NCBI GenBank assembly: GCA_965222615.1
Contig: CBDCUI010000007.1
Coordinates: forward strand, 128,001-192,000
DNA length: 64,000 nucleotides
Reading direction: 5' to 3'
From: Gammaproteobacteria bacterium
GTDB lineage: Bacteria; Pseudomonadota; Gammaproteobacteria; UBA4575
The notes below the pieces were generated by a model. That model searched no databases, was not told the origin of the DNA, and saw nothing but the letters and a program-made list of their open reading frames with translations. Numbering within the stretch: the stretch's first letter is position 1; the number at the start of each line of letters is the position of its first letter. This document shows positions 4,827 through 51,589 of this stretch, one piece after another. A program made the translations under genes and the position numbers.

Positions 4827-4915
4827 AGCAAAGGAACTTTTACAATACTAACAATGAAATGCTCCAAGCATCGCTGCTTGATGAAGATAAATTCGACCTG
4901 TAACAGATTAATAAA

Positions 4916-5302: not shown

Positions 5303-5447
5303 AGTCCATAACTATGAAACAACATCACACGATTTTAAACATAGCAAGTTTGACACTAAAATCATAACCATAAGTTATGTTTTGTAGACCACAACACAAA
5401 TTATTAGCTTGCGCCTATGGTTTACACAACCACAAAAAAGAAAAGGT

Positions 5448-5840: not shown

Positions 5841-5845
5841 ATTCT

Positions 5846-6274: not shown

Positions 6275-6320
6275 AGTGATTAATTCAGCGTTTGTTTTTG
6301 CACACATCGAAAGGCGCGAA

Positions 6321-6349
6321 ATAGTATCGAACTAATCACATGCTTACAA
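6321..6349 (-). promoter_or_regulatory. Sigma70 promoter of rplM-rpsI
   Basis: TTGTAA-17 bp-TACTAT followed by GC-rich discriminator TTCGCGCC. Confidence 0.65.
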
Positions 6350-6369
6350 GGAATTCACGGCCTCAAGAT

Positions 6370-6400
6370 AAAAAAAAGCGCGAATTTTGCAATCCGCGCT
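6370..6400 (-). terminator. Rho-independent terminator
   Basis: AGCGCGGAUU-GCAA-AAUUCGCGCU stem-loop followed by U run. Confidence 0.85.
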
Positions 6401-6460
6401 CAATAAATTATCTACCAGAAGTAGATGGAGGAGTTCTGAAAGTAAAGAACTATCAGAATA
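6370..6460 (-). ncRNA. Candidate ~90-nt base-pairing sRNA with exposed CUCCUCC
   Basis: Own TTGACA promoter, two hairpins flanking CUCCUCC, AU-rich linker, intrinsic terminator; no ORF. Confidence 0.6.
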
Positions 6461-6465
6461 TTCTT

Positions 6466-6494
6466 ATTCTCTAATATAATTGTATTATTGTCAA
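6466..6494 (-). promoter_or_regulatory. Candidate sigma70 promoter of the sRNA
   Basis: TTGACA-17 bp-GAGAAT; spacer contains ATAAT-N3-ATTAT inverted repeat. Confidence 0.5.
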
Positions 6495-6570
6495 CTAACA
6501 TTCTAGCTATCTTGCAAAAAAAAGTTGTTAAGTTGTGGATAAATGCCCTTAAATGGATAGACCCAAAGGC

Positions 6571-6882
6571 TCAGATCTTTAATCGTTCGACAATTTTACC
6601 GTTAATCAAGTGCTTGTCGATGATTTCATCTAAATCACTCTCATCTTTATAGGTGTACCAAACTCCATCTGGGTAGACCACTGCAATCGGCCCTTCATCA
6701 CAACGGTCTAAGCAACCAGAGCGATTGATGCGTACTTGACCTTGTCCCGCGATCCCCAATTCCTTGGTCTTATTTTTGGCATAGTCTCGCAGCTCGCTTG
6801 CCCCGTGGTCTTGGCAACAACTCTTATCTTCGCGTTCATTCACGCATATAAAAAGATGGCGTTTGTAATAAGACATAAACAC
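6571..6882 (-). CDS. Thioredoxin-like [2Fe-2S] ferredoxin
   Basis: HLFICVNER...CC...SGCLDRCDEGPIAVVYPDGVWY. Confidence 0.92.
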   Translation of the reverse strand: MFMSYYKRHLFICVNEREDKSCCQDHGASELRDYAKNKTKELGIAGQGQVRINRSGCLDRCDEGPIAVVYPDGVWYTYKDESDLDEIIDKHLINGKIVERLKI

Positions 6883-6995
6883 TCACCTAGGGCAAACTAT
6901 CAAGTTCTGTTATTAAAATTTATTGTATCAAGGCTTTACAGCTGACCTATTTCCTAATTGGGCCATAGCCATTATATCGTGATATCTAAGAAGAG

Positions 6996-8222
6996 ATGCC
7001 CATACCTAATATTACAAAACAAGATGTAATCAATGCTAGTGATCAATGCGTGATGTGCGGATTGTGTCTACCATACTGTCCAACATACCGCATTCAAAAA
7101 AATGAAGCAGAATCACCGCGCGGACGTATTGCACTAGTACGAGCTATATATGAGAACAACTTACAAGCTACACCAGTTTTAACAAATCATCTCGACTCTT
7201 GTTTAACTTGTATGACATGTGAGACTGTCTGCCCTGCCAATGTAGATTATGCAAAAATTATTGATGCAGGTCGAGAATTCACCTATAAACAACATAGTGT
7301 TTCAGATCGTTTTTATAAAGCATTTTTGTTGACGGTTCTAACTAATCCTAATGTTCGTAAATTTACTAAATTTATCCTCAGAATTTATCACGCACTTGGC
7401 TTCAATCACCTGCTAACAAAGATAAGTAACAACTCTTCACATGCATTGCTTCTGTTTAGATTAATTCCTAAACCTCAAAATCTAAACTTTGTTGAATCAT
7501 CAAAAAATGGGCTTGAAACACAGAGTCAAATTGTCCTGGTTAACACATGTGCCAGCGATTTGCTTTCTGATCAAACAAAAAATGCAGCAAGACATGTGCT
7601 AAATGCATTAAATTGCAAAGTAGTAGAGAAAACCCCCACACAATGTTGTGGTGCGCTGCACCAACACAATGGTGACTTAAAAAAAGCCCATCATTTAATA
7701 CAACAATTCGCAAGTTCCATTACTCATCAGGACTATGATGCATTAATTTCTCTGGCTACTGGGTGTGGAGTTCAATTAAACCGGCATCCAGATTTGATTA
7801 ACAAGCATATAGACATCAACGCCTTTGTATTAGACAAGCTTAAAAATAAGCAGCTAAACTTTAAACCTTTAGCAGAAGTTGTATTCATCCATAAGCCTTG
7901 CACTCAAGGTATTAAAAGTGACAATCAAATTGTAGAGAAATTGCTCAGCAATATTCCCGAACTAGAATTGAAATTTTTCCAAGACAATACGACCTGCTGT
8001 GGCGCCGGTGGCATTAACACGCTAACTCAAGCCAAACTTGCAAATAAAATAATCGGTGGGAAAATCAATGAAATAAAAGCCTCCGATGCTACATATTTAG
8101 TATCAAGCAATATCGGTTGTGTCCAACACTTTCAAGCAAACTTGTACCAAGAAGGCCGAAATAGTCGAAAAAACATTATTGTTTGCCACCCAATAACTCT
8201 ATTAGCACAGCAACTGCTATAA
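6996..8222 (+). CDS. glcF: Glycolate oxidase iron-sulfur subunit GlcF-like
   Basis: Two CxxCxxCxxxCP motifs, ESPRGRI, two CCG domains. Confidence 0.8.
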   Translation: MPIPNITKQDVINASDQCVMCGLCLPYCPTYRIQKNEAESPRGRIALVRAIYENNLQATPVLTNHLDSCLTCMTCETVCPANVDYAKIIDAGREFTYKQHSVSDRFYKAFLLTVLTNPNVRKFTKFILRIYHALGFNHLLTKISNNSSHALLLFRLIPKPQNLNFVESSKNGLETQSQIVLVNTCASDLLSDQTKNAARHVLNALNCKVVEKTPTQCCGALHQHNGDLKKAHHLIQQFASSITHQDYDALISLATGCGVQLNRHPDLINKHIDINAFVLDKLKNKQLNFKPLAEVVFIHKPCTQGIKSDNQIVEKLLSNIPELELKFFQDNTTCCGAGGINTLTQAKLANKIIGGKINEIKASDATYLVSSNIGCVQHFQANLYQEGRNSRKNIIVCHPITLLAQQLL

Positions 8223-38202: not shown

Positions 38203-39225
38203 ATGAGACTCTTATATAGACTCTGTAACAAAGTAGTGGCCTTAATATTTTGTTTGTTGATCAATTCATTTTGCATTGTTCAAGCAGAGCCTGGTTTTGG
38301 TGACAATGTTGATGCATTTTGTGTGGGGAAACCAGGTTTTGAAAACCCACCGGTATTTGGTGGTCTTATACTTGAGAATTGTGCTAAATGTCATAATCCA
38401 GCCAATAAAAATCTAGATCAGACACCTGCATTTGATCTATACAAAAAAGCCAAAGGTGGAGACTACTCTGCCCTATGTGATTATATTTCACCACCAATAC
38501 CAATGTGTACAGATGCTGACCTTGATGGCTTTTATATGGAGCCTAATTGTGGCACCCCTGTAGATTGTAACGATAACGATGCCATGATTAATCCTTTGGC
38601 GGATGAAATTTGCACAGATGGAAAAGACAACAACTGTAATGGTTTAGTCGATAGTGCCGATCTAGCTGTACAAAATTGTCCGATACCTAACGCCTGTACA
38701 GATATGGATAAAGATAGCTTTTCAATAGAAGGTGGTACTTGCGGTCCAATAGATTGTAATGACAATAATGCAATGATCTATCCAGGTGCGGTAGAACTTT
38801 GCGCAGATAAAATTGATAATAACTGTAGTGGTAAAGTTGATCTCGCTGACCCTGCGGTAGATAAAAATACTTGTCCAGTTGAATGTATTGACGAAGACAA
38901 AGATGGATACAGTATTACCGGTGGCGAGTATTGTGGCCCAATAGATTGTAATGATGCAGATGCCTTCGTAAATCCTGGTGTAGCAGAAGTTTGCAGCGAT
39001 AATATCGATAATAACTGTAATGGCACGGTCGATACAGCAGATCAATATTGCCCAGCCATGGATCCTAAGGCTAAATTAAAAGAGTTAAAAGATCAGATTA
39101 AACAGCACAAACGAGATTGTAAAACTAAAGAAAAGCAGCTCAAAAAAGAATACGAAGCGCTAAAAAAACAAATGGAGCAAGCTAAAGAGCGCGAAGACGA
39201 TGAAGATGATGAAGATGAAGACTGA
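38203..39225 (+). CDS. Exported c-type cytochrome with three Cys/Asp-rich putative metal-binding repeats and charged coiled-coil tail
   Basis: Signal peptide; CAKCH; 3x DxDxD..DCND..P...E.C.D..DNNC.G.VD; KE-rich helix; poly-D/E end. Confidence 0.8.
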   Translation: MRLLYRLCNKVVALIFCLLINSFCIVQAEPGFGDNVDAFCVGKPGFENPPVFGGLILENCAKCHNPANKNLDQTPAFDLYKKAKGGDYSALCDYISPPIPMCTDADLDGFYMEPNCGTPVDCNDNDAMINPLADEICTDGKDNNCNGLVDSADLAVQNCPIPNACTDMDKDSFSIEGGTCGPIDCNDNNAMIYPGAVELCADKIDNNCSGKVDLADPAVDKNTCPVECIDEDKDGYSITGGEYCGPIDCNDADAFVNPGVAEVCSDNIDNNCNGTVDTADQYCPAMDPKAKLKELKDQIKQHKRDCKTKEKQLKKEYEALKKQMEQAKEREDDEDDEDED

Positions 39226-39277
39226 AATCATCTTCACTAATACAAATAAATATTGCATGTAAAGATGCAATGTGTGG

Positions 39278-39304
39278 AAAGGGGCTTTTACTAGCCCCTT
39301 TTTT
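39278..39304. terminator. Probably bidirectional terminator
   Basis: AAAGGGGCT-TTTACT-AGCCCCTTTTTT between convergent genes. Confidence 0.8.
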
Positions 39305-39314
39305 ATTTTTGCTG

Positions 39315-40457
39315 CTAAAACTTGATTGTGTATCGTATATAATAATCCCACTCTCTGCGTTTGCGTTCTGCACTAGTTCTTTTATCAATATCTTCTCGAT
39401 TGCGTATGCGAGCTTCTAACTTCTGGTTTTTTGTAACCTGCCAACGATACCTAGTTTCAAATAACTCTTGGTTGTTGCCAAAATCCCCGGACAGTAACCA
39501 AGCTCCACCAGTTTGGGCATATACCATACCAATGCTATGTTTTGGCCAAATATCGATAAGATTAAAACTAGTTTGAAAAGCCAAACCATTGGTATCTTTA
39601 TCTCCACCAGTTCGAATTGCAGACTTTCTTGGCTTATCAAAGGCATAACCAAGTTCATTACCCCATAGAAACTTTGTCCCTTTTTCGCCCAGCGGCCATT
39701 GCATGGCAAGACGCCCACTGATTGCAGTGTAATCTTCAATACTGCCAGTTGCGTTCCCGTCACGTTGTAAAGCATCGGGAATATGCGTGATATCAATGCC
39801 TTTCTGAATGACGGTTTTAGTTTTATCCTTTTTCTCAACACCTAAATAATAGGTGATATGGCTATCGCTATCTTCAAAATCCAAAGGACTTCGTCTAACC
39901 GTGGTAGGACCCTCATCTTTACTTCGCTGCAATATCGCATGCAAATCCCACCCATTTGGAATGGTGTATTTAACATGCACACCATCGGTCCAGGTTATAT
40001 TGGTATTGTCACTATCATTTCTAGAAAATGATTTTTTAGCAACACCTTCTAATTCAAACTTGGTTTGAAACCGCCCTACTTTTATATCTAGCTTCTCATC
40101 GGGGTTATAACGAAAATAAAACTCATCTATAGTGGAATCCCCTAACCTGAGACCACCACCACTTGGAATCGATTCAAAAATTTCAAAATGATAAGTATTA
40201 AAGCGGTCGTCAGAACTATAACGACCTGCAAAACGAATTTTGCCACTGAATGAATCTGTAAAATTTAACTGCGTACCCACTCGCGCACGAATTCGCAGTT
40301 CGTCTCTACGAGAGTGCTCACCATTTCGATCATCTCTGTCTCTACCAAACGCCCCAAAACGCACATCACCACTAAACTGTACTATATCTTTATCATTCGA
40401 ATACACTTGCGTAGCCAAATTACATGTGAGAAAAAATAGAAGCGCCAATCGCCACAT
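39315..40457 (-). CDS. Putative outer-membrane porin
   Basis: Signal peptide; amphipathic beta strands (FSGDVRF, RIRARVG, KVGRF); C-terminal YTIKF; start set after GGAG. Confidence 0.75.
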   Translation of the reverse strand: MWRLALLFFLTCNLATQVYSNDKDIVQFSGDVRFGAFGRDRDDRNGEHSRRDELRIRARVGTQLNFTDSFSGKIRFAGRYSSDDRFNTYHFEIFESIPSGGGLRLGDSTIDEFYFRYNPDEKLDIKVGRFQTKFELEGVAKKSFSRNDSDNTNITWTDGVHVKYTIPNGWDLHAILQRSKDEGPTTVRRSPLDFEDSDSHITYYLGVEKKDKTKTVIQKGIDITHIPDALQRDGNATGSIEDYTAISGRLAMQWPLGEKGTKFLWGNELGYAFDKPRKSAIRTGGDKDTNGLAFQTSFNLIDIWPKHSIGMVYAQTGGAWLLSGDFGNNQELFETRYRWQVTKNQKLEARIRNREDIDKRTSAERKRREWDYYIRYTIKF

Positions 40458-40512
40458 GTTAGTGACTCCATAAAAAAACATATTAAAGTATCCGCTTACT
40501 GTAAAAGAATAA

Positions 40513-40597
40513 ATGTAGCCAAAATGTAAACAGATAAGTCTATGAATGATAGAATGTTTTAATTTAAGAACACCATGTGTTTACATATTATTTACAT
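40513..40597. promoter_or_regulatory. OmpR-type direct-repeat boxes in the divergent porin/regulator promoter
   Basis: TTTACAT at 40580 and 40591 (+); TTTACAT/GCTACAT at 40530 and 40519 (-); 11-bp period. Confidence 0.6.
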
Positions 40598-40640
40598 TCT
40601 TAGTTGTACAGTAGCTAGATAAAATACATCCTAGAATGCT

Positions 40641-41321
40641 ATGCAAGTCTTAATCATTGAAGATAATGCTGAAATCGCAACAAATATTGGCACCTATTTA
40701 GAAACCAAGGGGCACGCAATTGATTTTGCTTCTGACGGTGTTACCGGCCTACATTTAGCAGTGACCAATACTTATCATGTTATTGTGCTCGATTTAATGC
40801 TACCTGGTATGGATGGTTTAGAAGTCTGTCGCAAACTACGAGAAAGTTCTTCCTTACATGTCCCCGTGTTAATGCTAACCGCAAGAGATACCATTGAAGA
40901 TGTTGTACAAGGCTTTGAAGCCGGCAGTGATGACTATTTGATAAAACCATTTTCACTACAAGAGCTTGAAGTGCGTATTGATGCCCTGCATCGACGTGCA
41001 AGTCGACAATATGATAATCCTATTTTATGTGTTGAAGATGTCGAAATTAACTTAGAAAAACATACTATTATCCGTGCGGGTAAAAATATACAACTCAAAC
41101 CTGCAACCATGAGAATTTTAGTTTACCTCATGCGTAACACTCACCGTGTCGTCACCAGAAAAGAATTAGAGCTTGAGATATGGGGCGACACACCTCCCGA
41201 AGGAGATCCACTACGAGCTCATATCTATAATATACGTAATAGCTTGGATAAGCCCTTTGATCAAAAATTAGTGCATACTGTACATGGTGTAGGCTATAGA
41301 ATAGCGAAACAAAATGGTTAA
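40641..41321 (+). CDS. OmpR family response regulator, ColR-like
   Basis: EDN..I..N...YL..KG, DGVTGLHLA, LRAHIYNIR..LDKPF..LVHTVHGVGYR resemble Pseudomonas ColR. Confidence 0.9.
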   Translation: MQVLIIEDNAEIATNIGTYLETKGHAIDFASDGVTGLHLAVTNTYHVIVLDLMLPGMDGLEVCRKLRESSSLHVPVLMLTARDTIEDVVQGFEAGSDDYLIKPFSLQELEVRIDALHRRASRQYDNPILCVEDVEINLEKHTIIRAGKNIQLKPATMRILVYLMRNTHRVVTRKELELEIWGDTPPEGDPLRAHIYNIRNSLDKPFDQKLVHTVHGVGYRIAKQNG

Positions 41322-42579
41322 AGTTAAAACTCTTGGTGCACGTATAGCATTTGCAATGCTAAGCATTGTCGCAATTGGTGTTTTTATTCTAGGCATTGTG
41401 TTCTTTTTCACGTTTGACCATATGGAACATAAGCTATTGGAAATGTTAGACAGTTATGCAGTTCAGAACCTAAGTGAAGACGAATTTCAAAATACTACAC
41501 CAAATAGTGAACCTGAATTATTAGAAGAACAATTATTTTCAAGATTCTCCTCTTCTGACAATATCCCAGTTGAATTTAAGAAATTGAATGTGGGTTTTCA
41601 TCACGATGTCAAATACAACGGACGAAGTTATCATGTTGCAGTTAAAGAATTTGAAGGCACAAAAAAATATTTGCTTTTTGATATTACAGATATCGAAACA
41701 CAAGAACATGCACTTACTACAGTTATCATAGTTGCCACAACTGGTGTACTTATTATTGCAATTTGGGTTGCATATTGGCTATCGAGAAAAGTTATTCGAC
41801 CAGTACGAGAACTTGCTGAACAAGTCGGAGCTTTAGATCCAAATCAACGCAATATTCGTCTGGCAAAACAATATAATGATGTAGAAGTCGGCTTAATCGC
41901 CCAGTCATTTGATCATTATATGGAACGTTTAGATGGATTTGTCGAACGCGAACAATCTTTTACTTCTACTGCTAGCCACGAATTACGTACACCGCTTTCT
42001 GTTATATCAACTTCTGTCGAACTACTAGAAAATTCAGGGGAGCTTTCCACAAACTCTAAACAATATTTGAGTAAAATTAAAAAAAGTGCTAATGAAATGA
42101 CAAACCTTATCAGCTCATTATTATTTTTAGCACGCGAAGACTTACCTAATAATTATAAACAAATTGAACATACTGATATTTCACAACTCGCACATAACAT
42201 CGTTGACACCTATAGGTATATTGAAAAAGATAAAGACATCAAGCTATCAGTAACGGGGAACCAAAAAATGGAAATTGGTGCCCACAAAAGCCATGTGCAG
42301 ATTGTAATCAGCAATCTTTTGAATAATGCTATACGTTATACTCAAAAAGGTCGTGTTCAAATTATACTGCATGACAGTAAACTTGAAGTTGTGGATACCG
42401 GAAGTGGTATCGATGAATTAACATTGCAAAATGTTTTTGAGCGCGGCTTCCGTGGACTTGATAGCGCTGGTTATGGCTTTGGACTGTATATTTGCAAGCG
42501 CATCTGCGAACGCTATGGTTGGGATATATCTATATTTCGTAATAAAGATATCGGCTCTACAGCTATCGTTAGCTTCTAG
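41314..42579 (+). CDS. Sensor histidine kinase, ColS-like
   Basis: 2 TM, HAMP, SHELRTPL H-box, N and G boxes; periplasmic ExxE (ETQE) just before TM2. Confidence 0.9.
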   Translation: MVKVKTLGARIAFAMLSIVAIGVFILGIVFFFTFDHMEHKLLEMLDSYAVQNLSEDEFQNTTPNSEPELLEEQLFSRFSSSDNIPVEFKKLNVGFHHDVKYNGRSYHVAVKEFEGTKKYLLFDITDIETQEHALTTVIIVATTGVLIIAIWVAYWLSRKVIRPVRELAEQVGALDPNQRNIRLAKQYNDVEVGLIAQSFDHYMERLDGFVEREQSFTSTASHELRTPLSVISTSVELLENSGELSTNSKQYLSKIKKSANEMTNLISSLLFLAREDLPNNYKQIEHTDISQLAHNIVDTYRYIEKDKDIKLSVTGNQKMEIGAHKSHVQIVISNLLNNAIRYTQKGRVQIILHDSKLEVVDTGSGIDELTLQNVFERGFRGLDSAGYGFGLYICKRICERYGWDISIFRNKDIGSTAIVSF

Positions 42580-42626
42580 ATAACTGGACTAAAAAATAGC
42601 GATGAACGGCAAATCCTCTTTTGTCG

Positions 42627-42655
42627 TTTACATTTTGTTCACATCCTATTTACAA
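42627..42655 (+). promoter_or_regulatory. Triple direct repeat upstream of the biosynthetic operon
   Basis: TTTACAT (42627), TTCACAT (42638), TTTACAA (42649); exact 11-bp period. Confidence 0.65.
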
Positions 42656-42738
42656 ATGAACCACACCTATTTTTGTAATCTTTTCATATAGTTTGAACAT
42701 ATAAAGAGATTTCTTACACCAACAAGGCAATAAAACTC

Positions 42739-43398
42739 ATGGACGAATATAGTGGAGATCACAGCATGCTGGCCCTAAAAGAAGCTTCTTTCGATAATCC
42801 TATCCAATTACTAACAAAGGATAAGACACAATTTTTGCCATTGATACATAGGAACAATGATCCCAGCGCCTTTGCTGCAACTCAGTTTATAAAATCAGAA
42901 TTTCGCAAGCATTACAACGCATATGTTACTGAGTTCATGCCCAATCTAGTATCAATTATCAATAAAAATAAGAAAGTCAGAGCAGCTGTAGGTTATCGTG
43001 GCGCCACTACTGGTGAATTGTTTCTTGAACAGTATCTAGATAAACCTTTAGATACATATATCTCTGAATACTGCGGAGCTGACGTAACACGCGATCAAAT
43101 TGTTGAAGTTGGGAACTTGGCTTGTGCAGCTAATGGCTATGCAAGATTAGTCATTATTCGCTTGACAGAAATTCTTTATCGTAGTGGTTATCGATGGGTT
43201 GGTTTTACTGCAACACAAAATTTACTAAATTCTTTTCTTCGCTTAGGCCTCACTCCACATGCAATTACCTCTGCGGATGTATCACGCTTGAAAAATTCTA
43301 CTAACGATTGGGGCACCTATTACGATAATAATCCACAAGTAATGTTTGGAAGTATTGAGTGGGGATATAACAAACTCAAAGAAGAACATTTTATATAG
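42739..43398 (+). CDS. 'Thermostable haemolysin' family protein (probably acyltransferase-like)
   Basis: AAVGYR, LFLEQYLD.P, IVEVGNLA, WVGFTAT, WGTYY..NPQV; likely start 42766 after GGAG. Confidence 0.85.
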   Translation: MDEYSGDHSMLALKEASFDNPIQLLTKDKTQFLPLIHRNNDPSAFAATQFIKSEFRKHYNAYVTEFMPNLVSIINKNKKVRAAVGYRGATTGELFLEQYLDKPLDTYISEYCGADVTRDQIVEVGNLACAANGYARLVIIRLTEILYRSGYRWVGFTATQNLLNSFLRLGLTPHAITSADVSRLKNSTNDWGTYYDNNPQVMFGSIEWGYNKLKEEHFI

Positions 43399-43416
43399 AA
43401 AATTACATTTTGATAG

Positions 43417-44919
43417 ATGACTATATTAGAACAGCTACCATTACAAAATAATTCGGACTGTGCTCTTATTTCATCGCATGGAATAATGAAGTATGCCGAT
43501 GTGGTTGAAAAAATTTATCTCTATGCAGATTTCTTACAAGGACTTCGGCCTAAGTGCATTGCACTGTATTTAGATAATTGTTTCGAGTGGGTTATTACAG
43601 ATTTAGCTGCACATTTAAGCAATATCCCAGTCGTTCCACTACCCACTTTCTTTTCTCAAGCACAACTAATTCACTTAATAGATGATGTAAATGCTGATTT
43701 ACTCATTACCAACAAACAACTTAGCAAACAGCCATTACTTAGTCTATTCCAAAAAGAACCTATAAAAAGAGAACCTACTGGTGTTGAGCTGTATCAAAGA
43801 ACAATTTCATCAACAGTAAAGTACCCTGCTGGACTATCAAAGATTACTTATACTTCAGGCTCTACTGGCAGTCCCAAAGGAGTTTGCTTAAGCGCTAAAG
43901 CTCAACTCGAAGTAGTTAGTAGTTTACGCACTATCCTACAACCACTAAATATTAAAAAACATCTTTGTGTTCTTCCTCTTAGTACTTTACTTGAAAATAT
44001 TGCAGGTGTTTGGGCACCTTTATCGACTGGAGCTTTAGTTGCCGTACCTTCGTTACGAAAGCTCGGCTTTGAAGGTGCAAGTCAATTAAGACCACAACAA
44101 TTTCTAAATACTATTTTTCAGCATGATCCAGAAAGCATCATTTTGGTCCCAGAACTACTAAAAGTACTTGTATCAGCTTATGAAGCCGGAGCACTAAGAT
44201 CGCTTAATCTAAAGTTTATTGCCGTGGGCGGAGCGAAAGTAAGCTCATCTCTTTTAAAACGCGCACAGTCTCTAGGGCTTCCTGTATACGAAGGCTATGG
44301 CTTATCCGAATGTTGCTCAGTGGTTTCATTAAACCGGCCCTTCCAAAATAAATTAGGAACTTCGGGACAAGTCCTACCACACGCAAAAATGCGCATTTCT
44401 GATGACAACGAAATTGAAGTTTTGGGCAGCAACATGCTCGGATATCTACATCAAGAAAGCCTAATGCCTGATTTTTACCCAACAGGTGATCTTGGTGAAA
44501 TTGACGACGATGGTTATATTAAAATTAATGGTCGCAAAAAAAATATGTTTATCACATCATATGGAAGGAAAGTAAACCCGGAATGGATTGAAGAAGTTTT
44601 GCTTGAGCATGAGCTAATCAAGCAAACAATCGTTTTTGGAGAAAACCTGTCTTTTAACATTGCGATTATAGTACCAAACACAAAAGACATAAATAAGCAA
44701 AGTATTGCTCATGCAGTAGCTCAATCTAATTTATCTTTACCAAATTATGCAAGAGTTTCACGTTATCTGATTGCTGACTCTCCTTTTAATTTTAAAAGCG
44801 GGACACTCACTTCAAATGGAAAACTTAAACGTGATGCGATTTGGAAGTTATATGAAAAAGATATCCAGTTACTAACCGAAAATGCTAAGGGAATGAGCTT
44901 CACTGCTGCGGCTATGTAG
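43417..44919 (+). CDS. AMP-binding enzyme (long-chain acyl-CoA ligase-like)
   Basis: YTSGSTGSPKGV, YEGYGLSE, TGDLG, GRKK, GKLKR. Confidence 0.92.
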   Translation: MTILEQLPLQNNSDCALISSHGIMKYADVVEKIYLYADFLQGLRPKCIALYLDNCFEWVITDLAAHLSNIPVVPLPTFFSQAQLIHLIDDVNADLLITNKQLSKQPLLSLFQKEPIKREPTGVELYQRTISSTVKYPAGLSKITYTSGSTGSPKGVCLSAKAQLEVVSSLRTILQPLNIKKHLCVLPLSTLLENIAGVWAPLSTGALVAVPSLRKLGFEGASQLRPQQFLNTIFQHDPESIILVPELLKVLVSAYEAGALRSLNLKFIAVGGAKVSSSLLKRAQSLGLPVYEGYGLSECCSVVSLNRPFQNKLGTSGQVLPHAKMRISDDNEIEVLGSNMLGYLHQESLMPDFYPTGDLGEIDDDGYIKINGRKKNMFITSYGRKVNPEWIEEVLLEHELIKQTIVFGENLSFNIAIIVPNTKDINKQSIAHAVAQSNLSLPNYARVSRYLIADSPFNFKSGTLTSNGKLKRDAIWKLYEKDIQLLTENAKGMSFTAAAM

Positions 44920-44928
44920 GAGTACATC

Positions 44929-45603
44929 ATGGAATTTTTTAACGTAATCCAACAACACACACAAAAAGAGCGTGAGTATTTGTTGAGTTCGCCCATTATT
45001 ACTCAATGTATGCAGGGTGTAGTATCTCTTGAAAGTTACATTGCATTCTTAACTCAGGCTTATCACCATGTAAAACACACTGTACCGCTGTTTATGGCAT
45101 GTGGAAGTCGCCTACCAGAGCGTCTCGAATGGTTGCGAGAAGCGGTCGCTGAATATATAGAAGAAGAAATCGGTCATCAAGAATGGATACTCAATGATCT
45201 GCAAGCTTGCGGTGAAGACAAAGACAACATTCGTACTTCTACACCTAATTTTGAAACCGAGCTTATGGTCAGCTATGCCTATGATACGGTTAATAGAAAA
45301 AACCCTATGAGCTTGTTTGGCATGGTGAATGTTCTCGAAGGAACCAGTGTTGCTCTAGCCACAAATGCTGCCTCTATCATACAAAATAAATTAAATCTAG
45401 ATGAAGAAGCATTTAGTTATTTAAATTCTCATGGCAGCTTAGACCTGAAACATATCGAGTTTTATAAAGACCTTATGAACAGGCTAGATAACGAAGACGA
45501 TAAAAAAGCAATAATCCATTGTTCAAAAGCTGTATATATTTTATATGCAAATATTTTCCGATCTTTACCACTAGCAGATGAAAAACTTGTTCGGGTGGCA
45601 TAG
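44929..45603 (+). CDS. Haem-oxygenase-like (TenA/PqqC fold) iron-containing redox enzyme
   Basis: AYHHVKHT, EEEIGH, VLEG, HGSLDLKH dimetal-type ligand set. Confidence 0.85.
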   Translation: MEFFNVIQQHTQKEREYLLSSPIITQCMQGVVSLESYIAFLTQAYHHVKHTVPLFMACGSRLPERLEWLREAVAEYIEEEIGHQEWILNDLQACGEDKDNIRTSTPNFETELMVSYAYDTVNRKNPMSLFGMVNVLEGTSVALATNAASIIQNKLNLDEEAFSYLNSHGSLDLKHIEFYKDLMNRLDNEDDKKAIIHCSKAVYILYANIFRSLPLADEKLVRVA

Positions 45604-45606
45604 AGG

Positions 45607-46398
45607 ATGAAATTGAACAATACACGTGTATTACTCACCGGAGCAAGTGGCGGCATCGGCTCTGAAGTATGCAAACAGTTATTAGAGAATAATACCACTG
45701 TATTTGCTGTATCTCGTTATGAAAAAAAACTAAATGAGTTATTTTCTGTTGTAAGAAATCAGAAAGATCATTTTATTAAAATTGAAGCCGACATCACCAC
45801 GCAGTCTGGCCGTAATAAAATAATAGATATTATCAATGCTGAAAACAGTGGTATTAATGTCTTAATCAATTGCGCAGGCAGCAATTTATTCGCATCTGTA
45901 AGCGATCTAACAGAAAAAGACGTTATTCAACAAGTGAATACTAATTTAGTCGCGCCTATTTTGTTAATTCAATCCATGCTGCCAATACTCAAACAGCAAA
46001 CCAATGCAACAATAATTAACATCGGATCTAGCTTTGATTCAATTGGCTTTCCTGGGTTCTCAGTATATTCCGCTACAAAGTTTGGCTTAAGAGGGTTTTC
46101 GGAATCTTTACGAAGAGAATTATCCGATACCAATATTAAGGTTTGTATGGTTTCACCTCGTGCCACTAATACGGAAATGAATGGCACTAAAGTTCAACAC
46201 ATGAATAATGCTTTAAAAGTAAAAACTGATAGTGCAGATCAGGTTGCAAAAATAATTTTAAAAACGATTCAAAACTCCAGTTTAGAAAAATATATCGGTT
46301 GGCCAGAAAAATTGTTTGCGCGCATCAATAGAGTATTTCCATCTGTCGTAGATGGAGCAATATCTAAACAATTGCCGATAATAAAGCAGTATTTTTAA
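45607..46398 (+). CDS. Short-chain dehydrogenase/reductase
   Basis: TGASGGIG, NCAG, YSATK. Confidence 0.93.
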   Translation: MKLNNTRVLLTGASGGIGSEVCKQLLENNTTVFAVSRYEKKLNELFSVVRNQKDHFIKIEADITTQSGRNKIIDIINAENSGINVLINCAGSNLFASVSDLTEKDVIQQVNTNLVAPILLIQSMLPILKQQTNATIINIGSSFDSIGFPGFSVYSATKFGLRGFSESLRRELSDTNIKVCMVSPRATNTEMNGTKVQHMNNALKVKTDSADQVAKIILKTIQNSSLEKYIGWPEKLFARINRVFPSVVDGAISKQLPIIKQYF

Positions 46399-46412
46399 TA
46401 GAGGTACATATC

Positions 46413-47060
46413 ATGAAAAAATATGTTTTAAATATTCTAGTCATTTTAGTCATCTTTTTTATCCCATTTATAGCTGTGAATGCGGATTTTGATGGTGAGC
46501 TTCTAGAAATCCAACACGAGTGGGCAACTGCAAACTATCAACTTAAGGGAGATTCTCAGAAAAAAGCATTTGAAACTTTATTAAAAAAAACCAATACAAT
46601 AGTTTCTGCAAATCCAAATTCGGCCGAAGCCTTGATTTGGGACGGAATTGTAAATAGCACCTACGCAGGAGTCAGAGGTGGTGCTGGGGCATTAAAATAT
46701 GCAAAACATGCACGCAAAAATTTTGAAGCAGCAATTAAGATTAATCCTAAAGCTTTAGATGGCTCTGCCTATACAAGCTTAGGCACTCTGTATTACAAAG
46801 TCCCAGGTTTCCCAATTGGGTTTGGTAGCAATAAAAAGGCAGAATTGAACTTAAAAAAGGCCTTAGAGATCAATCCAAATGGTATTGACCCTAATTATTT
46901 CTATGGTGATTTTCTAATTGATAGAAAGCGTTATGACGAGGCTATTGTGATCTTAAACAAAGCCAAAGCTGCTCCAGATCGACCACAGCGCCCTATTGCA
47001 GATAGAGGTCGACGCGGCGAAATTGATAAAGCACTAGCAATTGCACAATCTAAAAAGTAA
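46413..47060 (+). CDS. Exported TPR-repeat protein
   Basis: Signal peptide; TPR helices; LYYKVPGFPIGFG, NPNGIDPNYFYG. Confidence 0.85.
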   Translation: MKKYVLNILVILVIFFIPFIAVNADFDGELLEIQHEWATANYQLKGDSQKKAFETLLKKTNTIVSANPNSAEALIWDGIVNSTYAGVRGGAGALKYAKHARKNFEAAIKINPKALDGSAYTSLGTLYYKVPGFPIGFGSNKKAELNLKKALEINPNGIDPNYFYGDFLIDRKRYDEAIVILNKAKAAPDRPQRPIADRGRRGEIDKALAIAQSKK

Positions 47061-47068: not shown

Positions 47069-48283
47069 TCAAAAATAATATGCAATATCAATTTGCAAAT
47101 AATCATCACGATGAAAATTATGCAACGGGTCTTGGTTGGCTACATTACTAAAGATTTGTAATTCGCTTTCTAAGCGCCAGCTGTCACTGAAACGGCGTTG
47201 TAGCTCAACACGAAAACTTTGACTATCAAAATCAAAATCATATATCCCACCCGCCAAAATCTCGGTATCTTGCACATCGTTAAATGCATAGCGCATGCCT
47301 AAGAACACATCGTCTTGAAAACCCGTAGGGGCATCTCGTTTTCGATCATCAAAGTGATATTCCGTTAACACTCCAATATCTGCAGCACTTTCCATCACGC
47401 CATAAAATGTGTATTCAAATCCACCTACTGCTGCGGTGAAGTCGCGACCTTTTTTAGTTTGCAAAATAGCTTCTAGTTTCCAGGTCCAATTACCTATAAT
47501 GGCTTGCAGATCCAAACCAGTTTGATCAATTAGCCCATAGAATGGAATAAGTTCTATTTCTCCATTTGAATTCAAAGTAGGTCGTAACTCCGGAGCACGT
47601 GAGGTGCCGTTGAAATGCGATAATCCTAAATCGACTGGACCAAATTGTGTTTTTAATCTTACTGCCCAATCAACATGATATTCCTCAGCTCCAGATTCAT
47701 ATTCTTCATTATCTGTGTCCACCACCAAACCCGTTCGTAACCGACCTTTGCGACCAGGAAAAGTTCTTTCGCGAAATCCTGGCAAGATATAAAACTGTAA
47801 TGCCCCCCAATCCTGTAACCAGGTGGTTTCTATCATTGGCTGCCCCAATTTATCTTCTGTATCTAAATTTTCGACTAAATCCGTCTGATTAATAATATCG
47901 ACAAGATGCTGAGACTCGGTTACACCCCAAAATACTTTGGCTAAACCAATCCGGAATTCCCAATCACCAATAACATGTAAATAATGTGCTTCACGAATAT
48001 CAACATGTGTACGTTCAGGATCGGTGGAATCTAAGCGTACAAATGGCGTGAACGTGATCGCACGAAAACCTGCGTTCCATTCTTGGTAATACTCGGGTTC
48101 AAATGCTAAAGAAAGATCGCCATCACGTTGTTGACTATGCTGTGCATCCTGCCAAAATGCACGACTTTGCCCCGAAACATAACCAGACCAACTACCGTGG
48201 TTATCTTCTGCACTAGACAGTGGTGCTGAAAGAATACACAGCGAGACAATTAAAATACTGCAAGTATCTTTTAAATATTTCAT
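47069..48283 (-). CDS. Outer-membrane beta-barrel protein associated with MMPL/LolA-like genes
   Basis: Signal peptide; DIREA, FWGVTES..LVDIINQTD; C-terminal IAYYF. Confidence 0.75.
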   Translation of the reverse strand: MKYLKDTCSILIVSLCILSAPLSSAEDNHGSWSGYVSGQSRAFWQDAQHSQQRDGDLSLAFEPEYYQEWNAGFRAITFTPFVRLDSTDPERTHVDIREAHYLHVIGDWEFRIGLAKVFWGVTESQHLVDIINQTDLVENLDTEDKLGQPMIETTWLQDWGALQFYILPGFRERTFPGRKGRLRTGLVVDTDNEEYESGAEEYHVDWAVRLKTQFGPVDLGLSHFNGTSRAPELRPTLNSNGEIELIPFYGLIDQTGLDLQAIIGNWTWKLEAILQTKKGRDFTAAVGGFEYTFYGVMESAADIGVLTEYHFDDRKRDAPTGFQDDVFLGMRYAFNDVQDTEILAGGIYDFDFDSQSFRVELQRRFSDSWRLESELQIFSNVANQDPLHNFHRDDYLQIDIAYYF

Positions 48284-48300
48284 TAATTATTAAATCACTC

Positions 48301-48440
48301 GTCATTGCGTGAGCGCACGGATGCGCGAATATCATATCCATCAGGAATGATGAAACACATTTTTAGTATTTTTATACGAAGCAATCCAGTCAACAATAAA
48401 AGATGGATCGCCACGTAATCTAAAGATCACTCGTGATGAC
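48301..48440. repeat. Family 2 repeat with nested family 3 insertion (~48310-48377)
   Basis: GTCATTGCG...GAAGCAATCCAGT...GATGGATCGCCACG...CTCGTGATGAC matches 35999-36076 apart from the insert. Confidence 0.7.
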
Positions 48441-48516
48441 AATACTTTTTGTTATCGTTAGGCCCAAGGTTCTAGCTCATACCCACCACTTTTAAATACA
48501 ATAATAGTCATCATTA

Positions 48517-49296
48517 CTATCGTAATCTCGGCAATGCATTAGGATTGAAATCGCGTTTTGCAACTTCCGTCTTGAACTTATAGTTTGCCCATTTCAGAGT
48601 TGTACTTTTCCCAGTTTGATGATTTTGCATAAACATTTCATCGGGCCGCCAGTAATAATCAATATGTTCTTGATAACCTGAATAGGTGAGTGTTTTGAGC
48701 AGAGCATTTTTGCGATCATAGAACTCGACTTTAACCGCGCGATATTCTTCTTTATCGATCCAGCCAATTTGTCTGGTATAACCTGAATATTCATATTCGG
48801 GATAACGTTCGACAACATAACACTCCCATTCACCACAGGCCTCATCGCGAAGGTATTTATAGGAATATTTTTCAACTTCCTGCGAGCCCAAGTCTTCAAA
48901 GGCAAATTCGCTACCTACAAAGGGTCCGGACTTATTACGCGAATTAATGCGCTTTACTCGTTTCAATGCGGGCAAGTAGAGCCACTGATCATCTGGTTCT
49001 AGGCCATGACTGTATGTAAGTACCGCAGTATGTTTTACATCGGCCGGCCGATCAAATATAGATAAAGTCTTATCTCCATCACCCTTTACCTCAAGCGTAC
49101 GTGTACGTATATATCGTGTACTTTCCTGACCTTTGCGATTACGCAATATCATGACCAAATCTGCAGTTTGCGTCTCAAAACCTGCATCGCGCTTATCTGC
49201 TGCAACAGCAATGGCCAAGCCTTTTTCTTCAGGTGTTTCAGCAAACGCGACAATACTAACTAGCAGCAGCCATGTCAGGAACCATATCTTTTTCAT
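48517..49296 (-). CDS. LolA-like outer-membrane lipoprotein-sorting protein
   Basis: PADVKHT, DDQWLYLPALKRVKRI, FVGSEFAFEDL; start set at MKKIW (signal peptide). Confidence 0.88.
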   Translation of the reverse strand: MKKIWFLTWLLLVSIVAFAETPEEKGLAIAVAADKRDAGFETQTADLVMILRNRKGQESTRYIRTRTLEVKGDGDKTLSIFDRPADVKHTAVLTYSHGLEPDDQWLYLPALKRVKRINSRNKSGPFVGSEFAFEDLGSQEVEKYSYKYLRDEACGEWECYVVERYPEYEYSGYTRQIGWIDKEEYRAVKVEFYDRKNALLKTLTYSGYQEHIDYYWRPDEMFMQNHQTGKSTTLKWANYKFKTEVAKRDFNPNALPRLR

Positions 49297-51589
49297 TCCT
49301 ACTCTCCTCAAGAGCAATCAATAACGGTGGTAAAAATAAGAAATCAATAATAAGTGCAATCACAATGGTAATTGCTGTTAAGAGTCCCATCGCTGAATTT
49401 AGTTCAAATGCAGACATCGCTAACACTAAGAATCCAGCTGCCAAAACAATCGTCGTAACTAATAATGCAGTGCCTACATTTGCAAAGGCATAGCGCACTG
49501 CATCGGTTGCACTAAGATTTTTTTCACGTTTCGCACGTAAATACTTGCTCATGAAATGCACGGTATCATCCACGACAATACCCAAGGTCATTCCAGCAAC
49601 CACGGATAGTGCCAAACCAATTTCGCTATCAAAAATTGCCCACACACCAAATGCAACCCCGATTGGTGTTAGATTTGGAATCATGCTTATTAGACCTAAC
49701 TTAAATGAACGCAAAGCAAAAATTAAAATGAGTGAGATTAGTGCTAATGCCGCTAAAGTGCCAACAATCATACTGTAAATGTTGCGCACTGCTAAATGTG
49801 AAAAGATCACTGCCGGGCTTGAAATAGATGCTTTTATTCCCTTGGCATTTTGCTCTAACCACTCTCTGGCTCTTGCTTCAAAATCAAGCATCTGTTTAGT
49901 ACTGAGTGTTTTTAATGTAGTGGATATGCGCGTTGATGATTTATCTACATTAATCTGATCGTTTAGATCTAATCCATACGGTAAAGACATTTCATAAAGC
50001 AAAAGATACTGCGCGGCTAATTCTCGATTCGTAGGTAAACTATATTGTTTTTCATTATCAGCATGCATATTTTTATTCAGACGTTTGAAGGTATCCGATA
50101 ATGTATTCACATGCATCACTTCAGGCTGCTTTCTATTCCAAGCAGTAAAGTTATCCATTTTTCTTAAAAATTCTGGTTCACTAATACCTCCAGAATCCTC
50201 CGTTTCTAGGGAAATTTGGATACTATATAAACCCGTGACTTTGTCTGCGACATAATCAGTATGACGACGAAACTCAATTGATTCATCAAAATACTCTACA
50301 AATCTATCGTTGATCTCATTACGTGGAACGATGGCAATAAATGCCACAATAATCGCACCCATTGTCCATAAAAGGATACGACGTTTATTGATAACAAACT
50401 CAGCAAAGTTTTGCATAAGTCGAGTTTTTCTATCCGGGCGCTGTTTCACTTTAAATGGCAACATTGCAGTTAATGCAGGTAAAAATAAAACAGACAATAA
50501 AAACGCATACGTAACACCCATTGCCGTGATATTGCCAAGATCACGAAATGGTGGCACATCACTAAAGTTTAAACTTAAAAAACCAATCACCGTGGTTAAG
50601 GATGTCAAAAAGATAGGATGAAAATTAATGCGTAGTGATTCTTTAATCGCAGCAATCTTATCCATACCGGAACGCATAGCATTTAAAAATGTTGTAAGAA
50701 AATGTACGCAATCTGCAACCGCTAAAGTAAGAATCATAGTAGGCGCAGATGCTGAAGGAGGTGTAAGTTTAAAACCTAACCAGCCGGCTGTGCCCATACC
50801 CATCAAGATTGAAAAAATAATAACTAGTAATGTAGAAAACGTCCCGGTAATACTGTGAGTAAACAAGAACAACCCTATAATGATGGCAACAAAAGCAAAT
50901 GGAATTAGATTTTTCATATCATTCTTACTTGCTTCTGGAAAAGCATTATTCATCATCACAATTCCAGTTGTATAAACATCAATCTCTGGGTGTGATTGTT
51001 CAAAATCTTTGATCATGCCACGTGTGAACGAAACTACCTCTGGGCCTTCGGCTGTTGGGTTTTCACCCGGTAATTCTATGGTGATATTCACCCCTGCTGC
51101 AGCAGAAGAGGCAGATACCAAACGATGCACTAACAGCGGTTCATTTAAGGCAACATTTTTTATGTACGCCAGATTTTCAGAAGTGAGGTTTTGAGCATCG
51201 TCTACTAAATCTATGACTATTAATTCATCGCCATCTGCATAGGTATGTTGAAAATTAGTAATCGAATCGACACGAATAGAATATGGAACTTGCCAAGATT
51301 GCTCAGTAAGTTCTTTTAACGCAGTTAAAAACTCTTTGTTGAATACATCTCCACTTTTTGGTTCCAACATAATATATACATTGTCATTTTTAGTATACGT
51401 ATCTTGGAGAGCTTCGAATTCAATCAACTGTGGATTATCTTCACTAAAAAAGTAACGATAGTCATTAGTAAAAACTAAATTTTTGCCTCCAGCAGCAAGT
51501 GTGAAGACAACTGCAATAGTTGCAAGGACAACTAGATACCGCCAGCGAATTACCCAATCTGAATATTTTCCAATCATTTTTATTCTCAT
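49256..51589 (-). CDS. MMPL/RND family transporter
   Basis: Duplicated TM architecture; AVADCVHF and GIVVDDTVHF; TSLTT..GF. Confidence 0.92.
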   Translation of the reverse strand: MRIKMIGKYSDWVIRWRYLVVLATIAVVFTLAAGGKNLVFTNDYRYFFSEDNPQLIEFEALQDTYTKNDNVYIMLEPKSGDVFNKEFLTALKELTEQSWQVPYSIRVDSITNFQHTYADGDELIVIDLVDDAQNLTSENLAYIKNVALNEPLLVHRLVSASSAAAGVNITIELPGENPTAEGPEVVSFTRGMIKDFEQSHPEIDVYTTGIVMMNNAFPEASKNDMKNLIPFAFVAIIIGLFLFTHSITGTFSTLLVIIFSILMGMGTAGWLGFKLTPPSASAPTMILTLAVADCVHFLTTFLNAMRSGMDKIAAIKESLRINFHPIFLTSLTTVIGFLSLNFSDVPPFRDLGNITAMGVTYAFLLSVLFLPALTAMLPFKVKQRPDRKTRLMQNFAEFVINKRRILLWTMGAIIVAFIAIVPRNEINDRFVEYFDESIEFRRHTDYVADKVTGLYSIQISLETEDSGGISEPEFLRKMDNFTAWNRKQPEVMHVNTLSDTFKRLNKNMHADNEKQYSLPTNRELAAQYLLLYEMSLPYGLDLNDQINVDKSSTRISTTLKTLSTKQMLDFEARAREWLEQNAKGIKASISSPAVIFSHLAVRNIYSMIVGTLAALALISLILIFALRSFKLGLISMIPNLTPIGVAFGVWAIFDSEIGLALSVVAGMTLGIVVDDTVHFMSKYLRAKREKNLSATDAVRYAFANVGTALLVTTIVLAAGFLVLAMSAFELNSAMGLLTAITIVIALIIDFLFLPPLLIALEESRNEKDMVPDMAAAS

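Follow-up and report, generated by a model that had tools for sequence, protein, structure and literature searches.

Thermostable hemolysins of the delta-VPH type, from the 'dth region' of Vibrio parahaemolyticus and V. cholerae, are the founding members of the Pfam family PF12261. The family name rests on hemolytic Escherichia coli clones of Vibrio genes. In V. parahaemolyticus, the thermostable hemolysin gene VP1729 lies near the genes of an iron-containing redox enzyme (VP1731) and a two-component system (VP1735) (PMC10469919), and in V. cholerae the ligase VCA1110 adjoins the delta-thermostable hemolysin (PMC12208996); what is said here of papers cited by PMC number pertains to excerpts of them. 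These excerpts treat the Vibrio genes as markers for hemolysin or virulence and describe no product or pathway, unlike the reading proposed here. We analysed a 64,000-nucleotide stretch of DNA, hereafter the window, from a Gammaproteobacteria bacterium of the lineage UBA4575 (GenBank assembly GCA_965222615.1, contig CBDCUI010000007.1, positions 128,001 to 192,000), in which a protein of the same Pfam family is encoded by the first gene of a five-gene operon. The dth arrangement, known from papers rather than from inspection of the loci, is that of the window: a redox enzyme and two-component genes lie within six locus tags, with a ligase alongside. The neighbours in VP1729-VP1735 and at VCA1110 thus place the founding Vibrio 'hemolysins' in the same module.

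We read the region as a seven-gene module, in which a ColRS-type two-component system is followed by a five-gene biosynthetic operon, with the following genes (window coordinates):

40641..41321, plus strand, response regulator (RR) of the OmpR family, ColR-like, with Response_reg and Trans_reg_C domains
41314..42579, plus strand, sensor histidine kinase (HK) with two transmembrane segments, ColS-like, with HAMP, HisKA and HATPase_c domains
42739..43398, plus strand, PF12261 'thermostable hemolysin' protein, T_hemolysin at 196.3 bits (cut-off 27) over profile positions 4-172 of 174
43417..44919, plus strand, ANL-superfamily adenylating enzyme (acyl-CoA or acyl-AMP ligase), AMP-binding (PF00501) at 146 bits and AMP-binding_C_3
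44929..45603, plus strand, haem-oxygenase-like dimetal oxidase (HDO), Haem_oxygenas_2 (PF14518) at 104 bits (cut-off 28.9)
45607..46398, plus strand, classical short-chain dehydrogenase/reductase (SDR), adh_short at 157 bits and NCBIfam NF006565 (PRK09072) at 325.9 bits (cut-off 238)
46413..47060, plus strand, exported tetratricopeptide repeat (TPR) protein, the last gene of the operon, TPR_19 at 33 bits, with a signal-peptide-like N-terminus

The RR and HK genes overlap by 8 nt, 159 nt separate the HK gene from the PF12261 gene, and the gaps inside the operon are, in order, 18, 9, 3 and 14 nt. Together with a porin-like gene on the minus strand, eight genes lie within 39315-47060. A sequence-only reading of this DNA had named the RR-HK pair and the five tightly coupled genes, all of which are present; its start at 39315, however, is the end of the porin-like gene, which it left unmentioned, and not the start of the RR gene. 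Judged from sequence, the five genes look like a widely conserved pathway for a fatty small molecule. That they form one biosynthetic pathway headed by an acyltransferase is probable. The best explanation as a whole, covering module, pathway and regulation, stands a little above an even chance in our estimate, and a lipid-type product is more tentative than that.

The PF12261 protein and its partner enzymes

The PF12261 protein was aligned with 47 homologues and modelled by AlphaFold2 (AF2), with a mean predicted local distance difference test score (pLDDT) of 88.8. The model shows the alpha/beta fold of GCN5-related N-acetyltransferases (GNAT). A fold search by VIA-align over 48,161 chains yielded Z scores of 16.2 for TofI (160 residues, rmsd 2.6), 15.3 for LasI, 14.4 for RpaI and 14.3 for FeeM, compared with 12.9 or less for ordinary GNATs, and the top eight hits of a Foldseek search against the PDB include LasI, TofI, EsaI, MesI and FeeM. 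The solved folds closest to the PF12261 protein are those of the LuxI-type acyl-homoserine lactone (AHL) synthases, namely LasI, TofI, EsaI and the CoA-dependent RpaI, BjaI and MesI, and of FeeM; the Z scores against AHL synthases and FeeM range from 12.6 to 16.2 over 150-169 residues at sequence identities of 8-14%. On the predicted structure, the protein is a cytoplasmic GNAT-fold acyltransferase of the structural group formed by AHL synthases and N-acyl-amino-acid synthases (NAS), a membership given by fold and not by sequence. This assignment contradicts the family name 'thermostable hemolysin'. A search of the PDB by sequence returned no match at E <=10.

The strand IVEVGNLA comprises residues 121-128 of the PF12261 protein, and I121, V122, E123, V124, G125 and L127 are invariant among the homologues. 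Glu123, in the central strand, sits where the sequence-only reading had put the catalytic strand of LuxI and FeeM. That reading had drawn on this strand and on a missing signal peptide, and had staked its claim beforehand on a GNAT-like fold. The strand is nearly invariant, a reading of the sequence reveals neither a hydrophobic N-terminus nor a signal peptide, and the model is a GNAT with LuxI-type AHL synthases and FeeM as its nearest relatives. The pairing of the protein with an acyl-CoA ligase parallels the CoA-dependent LuxI-type synthases. Exosortase loci, going by the title of a 2011 study by Craig et al., reportedly also carry an NAS together with an acyl-CoA ligase. Unlike LuxI systems, no LuxR-type receptor is present at the window locus.

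A literal reading of the database name, with a true protein hemolysin as product of the first gene, in line with PMC5592226 calling delta-VPH a thermostable hemolysin 'with unclear role in pathogenicity', is hardly compatible with these features. Besides the GNAT enzyme fold, the invariant glutamate-bearing strand and the missing signal peptide, the protein is embedded among biosynthetic enzymes and sometimes fused to them, and the family occurs in free-living soil and water bacteria; we regard the chance of a protein hemolysin as close to negligible. Both N-acyl glycine and lyso-aminolipids are hemolytic and disrupt membranes (PMC11631085; PMC5643525), giving a simple reason why the clone of such an acyltransferase should lyse red cells. 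The hemolysis after which the family was named would most plausibly be a secondary consequence of a lipid product that acts on membranes.

The core motifs TSGTTGxPKG, GYGxSE, TGD and GRxK are present in the ligase. Alignment of 27 homologues showed that the residues Thr146, Ser147, Gly148, Thr150, Pro153, Lys154, Gly155, Gly293, Tyr294, Gly295, Glu298, Gly357, Asp358, Gly372, Arg373 and Lys375 are invariant. At residues 467-472, the position of the C-terminal adenylation lysine, the window protein reads N-G-K-L-K-R and the consensus of the homologues N-G-R-L-R-R, arginine being common in the homologues where the lysine is expected. The best NCBIfam matches are MenE and long-chain fatty-acid-CoA ligases, all below the cut-offs, and the score against TIGR03098 is 93 bits for a cut-off of 592. 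PDB searches by sequence returned no match for the ligase at 1e-20 and none for the SDR at 1e-25; the SDR holds the motifs TGASGGIG (TGxxxGxG) and YSATK (YxxxK). The matches of the ligase would also suit a catabolic or salvage route, in which ligase, oxidase and reductase would act on a fatty or aromatic acid taken from outside, to use or detoxify it, and the GNAT would have a side role, and a V. cholerae vca1110 transposon mutant indeed showed a changed elongation pattern of a fed C13 fatty acid (PMC12208996). Such a route would, however, have to do without a thiolase, hydratase or other beta-oxidation partner in the operon, and the constant LuxI/FeeM-type synthase, the exported TPR protein and a triple fusion with the GNAT domain in first place fit synthesis better, so that we consider it improbable.

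The HDO is the best-conserved protein of the set, its homologues being 53-79% identical to the window protein with a mean column identity of 74%. The motifs quoted in the sequence-only reading are all present as EEEIGH (Glu78-His83), Glu137 and His168-x3-Asp172-x2-His175. In the alignment of 35 homologues the canonical ligands Glu80, His83, Glu137, His168, Asp172 and His175 are all invariant, as are Glu79 and four additional residues, His47, His50, Glu111 and His197. The AF2 model (pLDDT 89.8) has its nearest folds in 3DDE and Chlamydia CADD (CtCADD) at template-modelling scores (TM-scores) of 0.82-0.83, with UndA at 0.71. By its modelled fold and its set of three histidine and three carboxylate ligands the protein belongs to the HDOs; the dimetal cofactor and O2 turnover are predicted. 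The characterised HDOs UndA, BesC, CADD and SznF have the fold (TM-score 0.71-0.83) and the ligand set ExxH...E...HxxxDxxH in common with the window HDO, but identity to UndA and CADD is only 10-16% and the four additional invariant residues set it apart. It also differs in being encoded right after an adenylating enzyme or, in other bacteria, fused to one, a fusion absent from the HDO titles and abstracts surveyed. In excerpts of the HDO review PMC13108848 such a fusion is likewise not mentioned, the terms searched there not including 'fusion' or 'AMP'. The protein atlas returned generic automatic names for the HDO, and prediction of a complex of ligase and HDO gave a score of 0.00, which allows no verdict.

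GNAT acylation of N-hydroxy amines takes place in hydroxamate siderophore pathways. A metal-handling metabolite can be considered along these lines, namely a chelator or detoxifier induced by metal excess, such as an acyl amide of the hydroxamate or diazeniumdiolate type, made with the HDO as N-oxygenase and the GNAT acylating an N-hydroxy amine. N-oxygenation is, in the literature excerpts, a major HDO class (SznF, RohS, and FlcD in the pathway of copper-binding fluopsin C), and the ExxE-type metal sensors described below as regulators would agree with such a product. The window HDO, however, is not close in sequence to any N-oxygenase, with 3DDE as its only PDB match; no conserved transporter or TonB-dependent receptor adjoins the operon, and the hemolysis attributed to the first gene suggests action on common metabolites. 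We consider this metabolite unlikely and prefer an acyl amide of lipid character. The oxazolone pathways tyzACB and trzAS (PMC12856293) follow the same logic as the pathway preferred here, amino acid N-acylation and then ATP- and O2-dependent tailoring, but their tailoring enzymes are a ThiF-like cyclase and a flavin oxidase, unlike the ligase and HDO of the window.

Conservation, fusion and possible transfer of the operon

Loci were collected with the peptide pattern IVEVGNLA[ACS] over 185,579 one-genome-per-species GTDB genomes. The pattern matched 477 stretches, 466 of which encode a PF12261 relative. The best 80 of the pattern matches were compared, the window proteins being placed in them by tblastn; they include loci of Stutzerimonas, Pseudomonas, Rhodoferax, Thauera, Aromatoleum, Massilia, Duganella, Thiobacillus and Polynucleobacter. 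All five genes, with order and strand unchanged, are present in 74 of the 80 loci, and the remaining 6 run into a contig end. Clustering of the flanking open reading frames (ORFs) revealed, RR and HK aside, no gene family common to more than 19 loci. Like the window protein, the TPR homologues in the other examined loci have a signal-peptide-like N-terminus.

Gene fusions point in the same direction. Among the longer HDO homologues listed, 115 of 120 join AMP-binding (PF00501) and PF14518 in one chain of about 700-750 residues, with Marinobacter, Gallaecimonas, Glaciecola, Pseudoalteromonas and Cellvibrio among the sources, and two listed proteins of 943 residues consist of PF12261, PF00501 and PF14518 in the gene order of the window; the domain architectures of four fusion proteins were re-scanned. 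Since the ligase is fused to the HDO, and in rare cases all three enzymes are fused, the three enzymes would act in one pathway. The view taken from sequence alone, that this is not a haemolysin locus but a pathway, is borne out by the conserved order, by both kinds of fusion and by the Vibrio 'hemolysin' genes in the same neighbourhood.

Comparison of the window with the corresponding locus of a congeneric genome (L001) revealed homology over 40491-47055 only, an interval that coincides with promoter, sensor genes and operon. A search of 31 related genomes detected PF12261 in 2, both of the window's own genus. Therefore, the seven genes behave as one transferable unit. PF12261 is absent from 17 of 18 other sampled genomes of the window's taxonomic family, and its restriction within the family to the window's genus suggests that the seven-gene module was acquired by transfer. 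Direct or inverted repeats flanking the 6.6-kb module, which would mark the ends of a mobile element, were not found. Genomes of this family are small, at 1.2-2.8 Mb.

Sensor pairs and promoter boxes

ColS of Pseudomonas putida has a 96-residue periplasmic domain with the conserved residues Glu38, Glu96, Glu126 and Glu129, and the glutamates of its FExRE motif are needed for the response to Zn and Fe(III) (PMC4074579). RaxH of Xanthomonas was called a ColS orthologue by the size of this domain and an ExxE next to the second transmembrane segment (TM2), with lipid A remodelling neighbours as the third criterion (PMC8306577). In the window HK, TM1 ends near residue 34 and TM2 starts near residue 135, leaving a periplasmic domain of about 100 residues. 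Its N-terminal 175 residues are colinear with Stutzerimonas ColS, with four gaps of 1-3 columns. The residue Glu38 is kept, and I-E128-T-Q-E131, directly before TM2, aligns on F-E-A-R-E of ColS (FExRE); the L001 kinase keeps IETQE.

A quick maximum-likelihood tree placed the window RR and its L001 orthologue as sister to the Stutzerimonas ColR clade (SH-aLRT 97), apart from the RRs encoded downstream of the operon in other loci and from five OmpR-family paralogues of its own genome. The window RR is 46-50% identical to the upstream RR of the Stutzerimonas group and 30-38% to the downstream RR found almost everywhere, whereas the window HK is only 29-33% identical to Stutzerimonas ColS. In Stutzerimonas, the upstream pair is followed by genes of a methyltransferase and a Kdo/WaaP-family (InaA-like) kinase, with sulfatase-family and DgkA genes further on; the methyltransferase and the Kdo/InaA kinase form the colRS neighbourhood in Pseudomonas (PMC2689224). 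The four genes stand downstream of colRS at L003 1791-5312, L038 1693-4510 and L051 878-2286, where the sulfatase-family protein has 716-735 residues and is phosphoethanolamine-transferase-like, and they make up a compact envelope-remodelling neighbourhood adjoining the operon.

The window pair resembles ColRS and RaxHR in the clade that the quick tree suggests for its regulator, the size of the periplasmic domain, the ExxE next to TM2 and Glu38. It differs from ColRS in having no methyltransferase, InaA, LpxE, EptA or ArnT neighbours and in an apparent regulon that is tiny and local. On these sequence features the pair looks ColRS-like, of the kind that detects excess iron or zinc. The sequence-only reading had also called the pair ColRS-like and had pointed to an ETQE motif. 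The motif is present at HK residues 128-131, and the regulator tree, the alignment of ExxE on FExRE and the ColRS synteny of the Stutzerimonas comparators agree with the designation.

Three repeats with a TTTACA core and the porin-like gene lie around the sensor genes:

40580..40596, plus strand, direct repeat TTTACA-N5-TTTACA, 45-61 nt upstream of the RR start codon
42627..42654, plus strand, triple repeat TTTACA / TTCACA / TTTACA with 11-nt spacing, 85-112 nt upstream of the operon start codon
40513..40531, minus strand, degenerate box TTTACA-N5-GCTACA facing the porin-like gene, 84% complementary to the operon-promoter box
39315..40481, minus strand, gene of a porin-like outer-membrane protein, a 388-residue ORF with a hydrophobic N-terminal segment and a C-terminal F

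The repeat at 40580-40596 is presumed to be an autoregulation site, and the triple repeat is presumed to be a binding site of the regulator. The motif TTTACA-N5-TTYACA occurs twice in the window compared with 0.13 copies expected from shuffles, and four times exactly in the 3.1-Mb genome, where the only two intergenic copies are those of the RR and operon promoters. The other two exact copies, inside coding regions, were set aside as chance. A relaxed form of the motif has 7 genomic matches, 3 of them within this 2.2 kb, the box at 40513-40531 included. Between the 16-mer at 42627-42642 and YYNASNNYTTTTTSAC, the ColR consensus derived from footprints (PMC2689224), there is a single mismatch, and L001 keeps the triple repeat at the same place. 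With direct-repeat boxes common to the RR and operon promoters, the sensor pair looks wired to the operon, as had been supposed from the letters alone. A scan for promoters and terminators found consensus sites no commoner than in shuffles; a weak terminator-like hairpin at 42603-42630 overlaps the first operon-promoter repeat and decides nothing.

The porin-like gene is divergent from the RR gene and lies outside the homology block common to the window and L001. No family in Pfam or NCBIfam matched its protein, and the language-model look-alikes in the protein atlas are 'porin' clusters, which we take as a lead only. It is a possible third target of the regulator. OprQ of Pseudomonas is presumably a porin. 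A porin-like gene as likely target would be a further likeness to ColRS, oprQ (PP0268) being a known ColR target (PMC2689224). The intergenic region between the porin-like and RR genes (40497-40613) contains an imperfect 39-nt inverted repeat, 74% complementary, which puts boxes in both orientations, as expected of a shared divergent control region.

Genes on either side of the module were also inspected. Just upstream of the porin-like gene, 38203-39225 (plus strand) encodes a secreted protein of 340 residues, in which three putative metal-binding repeats of the MopE type (PF11617, 113 bits) are accompanied by a coiled tail, rich in Lys and Glu, that ends in a run of acidic residues; at 39276-39303 stands a strong hairpin resembling a terminator. 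The position of this protein beside a metal-sensor module may be more than coincidence. Three genes at 47069-51589 (minus strand) converge on the operon end and encode a signal-peptide protein of 404 residues without a family, a LolA_like protein (PF17131, 210 bits) and an RND transporter of the HAE3/MMPL type (TIGR00921, 174 bits). They look like a lipid or hydrophobe export set; the trio lies outside the block shared with L001, and its link to the operon is unsupported.

In most other bacteria a different sensor pair accompanies the operon. Of the 74 complete loci, 70 have an RR gene behind the TPR gene in the same orientation, and in 62 an HK gene was called as well. The downstream RR and HK score best against PmrA/QseB and QseC/PmrB models, below the cut-offs, and 58 of the 62 downstream kinases carry HExxE just after TM1, the four misses having anomalous ORF lengths or N-termini. 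HExxE is the motif of the Fe(III)-sensing PmrB, and RExxE that of the Fe(II)-sensing BqsS, whose regulator BqsR has the box TTAAG-N6-TTAAG (PMC4358008). Within 300 nt upstream of the operon, 38 of 75 loci have a perfect copy of this box; allowing one mismatch raises the count to 56 and allowing two to 64, compared with 1, 29 and 81, respectively, of 3564 background windows of 300 nt from the same loci. Where a ColR-like RR is encoded in the flank, as in the Stutzerimonas group, the ColR consensus with at most one mismatch stands upstream of the operon in 25 of 27 loci; it does so in none of the 49 loci that lack such an RR (background, 44 of 3617 windows). In Stutzerimonas, about 5 kb lie between colRS and the operon at L002, L009, L013, L014, L016, L017, L020, L023, L027, L028, L031, L033 and L042 (~3000-7900), and at the other half or so of the loci colRS and the operon diverge from each other across 190-310 nt; the box of ColR type is on the operon side in both arrangements. 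The ColRS linkage seen in the sequence-only reading therefore holds for the window lineage, but elsewhere the constant partner of the operon is the downstream pair of PmrAB/BqsRS type.

Sensor operons with envelope-protecting effectors include pmrCAB and PA4773-PA4775-pmrAB. In bqsPQRST of P. aeruginosa (PMC4358008), too, a sensor operon carries its own effector genes. The loci with a downstream pair resemble these systems in the same-strand RR after the five genes, the TTAAG-N6-TTAAG promoter box and the HExxE kinases. They differ in their effectors, which are four enzymes and a TPR protein and not PepSY proteins, EptA or polyamine enzymes, and the window lineage differs further in a sensor pair of the other type, located upstream.

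The linkage to sensor pairs also bears on a signal circuit, in which the LuxI-fold synthase would make a diffusible N-acyl signal and the linked two-component system, perhaps with the TPR protein, would serve as its receptor in the manner of quorum sensing. The closest folds are indeed AHL synthases, among them RpaI, BjaI and MesI, which use an acyl-CoA supply; the sensor pair is the only constant neighbour of the operon, and its usual place at the operon 3' end, behind the operon-promoter box, would give positive feedback. However, a dedicated receptor is expected to co-evolve with its synthase, whereas two non-orthologous sensor types, ColS-like and PmrB/BqsS-like, serve one operon, and in both the ExxE or HExxE stands where known metal sensors have it. 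The PF12261 protein, moreover, lacks a match to the LuxI family of Pfam. We consider a signal circuit distinctly unlikely. That two unrelated ExxE-type sensors attend the same operon across lineages fits an effector of cation or envelope stress better than a private receptor, and on this sequence comparison the five genes are most plausibly the effector arm of a circuit that responds to cation or envelope stress.

Proposed pathway and its significance

Based on the models, the fusions and the promoter boxes, we propose a pathway and its control, in which the order of the reactions is less certain than the explanation as a whole. The ligase would turn a carboxylic acid, with a fatty acid as the likeliest choice, into its activated form, acyl-AMP or acyl-CoA. 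The GNAT would move the acyl group to an amine, probably of an amino-acid-like acceptor, to give an N-acyl amide. The HDO might then carry out an O2-dependent oxidation, such as desaturation, decarboxylation, hydroxylation or N-oxygenation, and the SDR an NAD(P)H-dependent reduction. The amphiphilic product would act in or beyond the envelope, where the periplasmic TPR protein may handle it. In the window organism, the kinase would sense a periplasmic cation of the Fe or Zn type through the ExxE next to TM2, and the phosphorylated regulator would switch on the operon, the divergent porin-like gene and, through its own promoter, itself. In most beta- and gammaproteobacteria, this role would fall to a PmrB/BqsS-like HExxE kinase and its regulator, encoded at the operon 3' end, with TTAAG-N6-TTAAG in the promoter.

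Several results weigh against this proposal. In Pfam, the PF12261 protein matches PF12261 only at E <=0.01, with no match to the LuxI family (Autoind_synth); at the same threshold it matches none of the NCBIfam families, including any curated NAS model, and neither an acceptor nor a donor can be read from its sequence. The nearest solved relatives of the HDO are 3DDE, whose function is unknown, and the self-sacrificing para-aminobenzoate synthase CADD, neither of which points to lipid chemistry. The loci compared are kin, many of them from Stutzerimonas, and counts across them therefore overstate independence. As to the sensor pair, lipid A remodelling genes adjoining the RR and HK genes were not found at the window locus, unlike ColRS and RaxHR. 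The periplasmic domain of the HK is rich in glutamate and has a second ExxE (ELLE), so the ExxE alone could be due to chance, and the HK and RR of the window lineage are represented by two sequences only. The RR tree came from a quick search and includes no experimentally studied ColR, the identity of the Stutzerimonas ColR being based on synteny. Its upstream rows L002, L013 and L063 and downstream rows L037 and L075 stand on branches of 4.3-4.5 changes per column, probably mis-called ORFs in GC-rich DNA. At the promoters, the ColR consensus with at most one mismatch is common in the AT-rich window (8 matches, 4.15 expected), and the enrichment of the TTTACA repeat is partly circular, as the repeat was defined from the promoters in which it was then counted; independent support for it is limited to the likeness to the ColR consensus, the L001 copy and the rarity in the genome.

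A bolder version of the proposal takes PF12261 as a third, so far unrecognised branch of the LuxI/FeeM fold, which together with the often fused pair of ligase and dimetal oxidase would make a novel type of oxidatively tailored N-acyl compound; proteobacteria would release this compound under Fe or Zn stress, and it would double as an extracellular cue read through the attached two-component system and the TPR protein. It would amount to metal-gated chemical signalling or shielding, with the Vibrio 'hemolysin' phenotype as its shadow, and we hold it to be quite doubtful.

A full-text literature search, within a scope that stopped short of supplements and of the 2002 paper on the V. cholerae dth region (Fallarino et al.), returned no paper naming a product or pathway of the operon. 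The parts are of known kinds, namely PF12261, an ANL ligase, an HDO, an SDR and a ColRS-like system; the assembly is without a described product. We regard it as a widely distributed and experimentally tractable lead and not as demonstrated new chemistry. With its LuxI/FeeM-fold synthase, its adenylating enzyme and its dimetal HDO, the pathway unites three kinds of enzyme that now attract interest; it occurs in at least 466 genomes at species level, with Vibrio-like marine bacteria as well as Stutzerimonas, Thauera and Massilia among the carriers. The sensor and the recognisable promoter boxes that accompany the operon allow a guess at the conditions of induction, which opens the metabolite to experiment. 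PF12261, scored in excerpts of Vibrio surveys as a hemolysin or virulence marker, would here act as the acyltransferase in a compact pathway. Should that pathway yield an inducible envelope lipid or surfactant, the cation-stress responses of ColRS, PmrAB and BqsRS, which in other bacteria are tied to polymyxin and metal tolerance, would gain a new effector.

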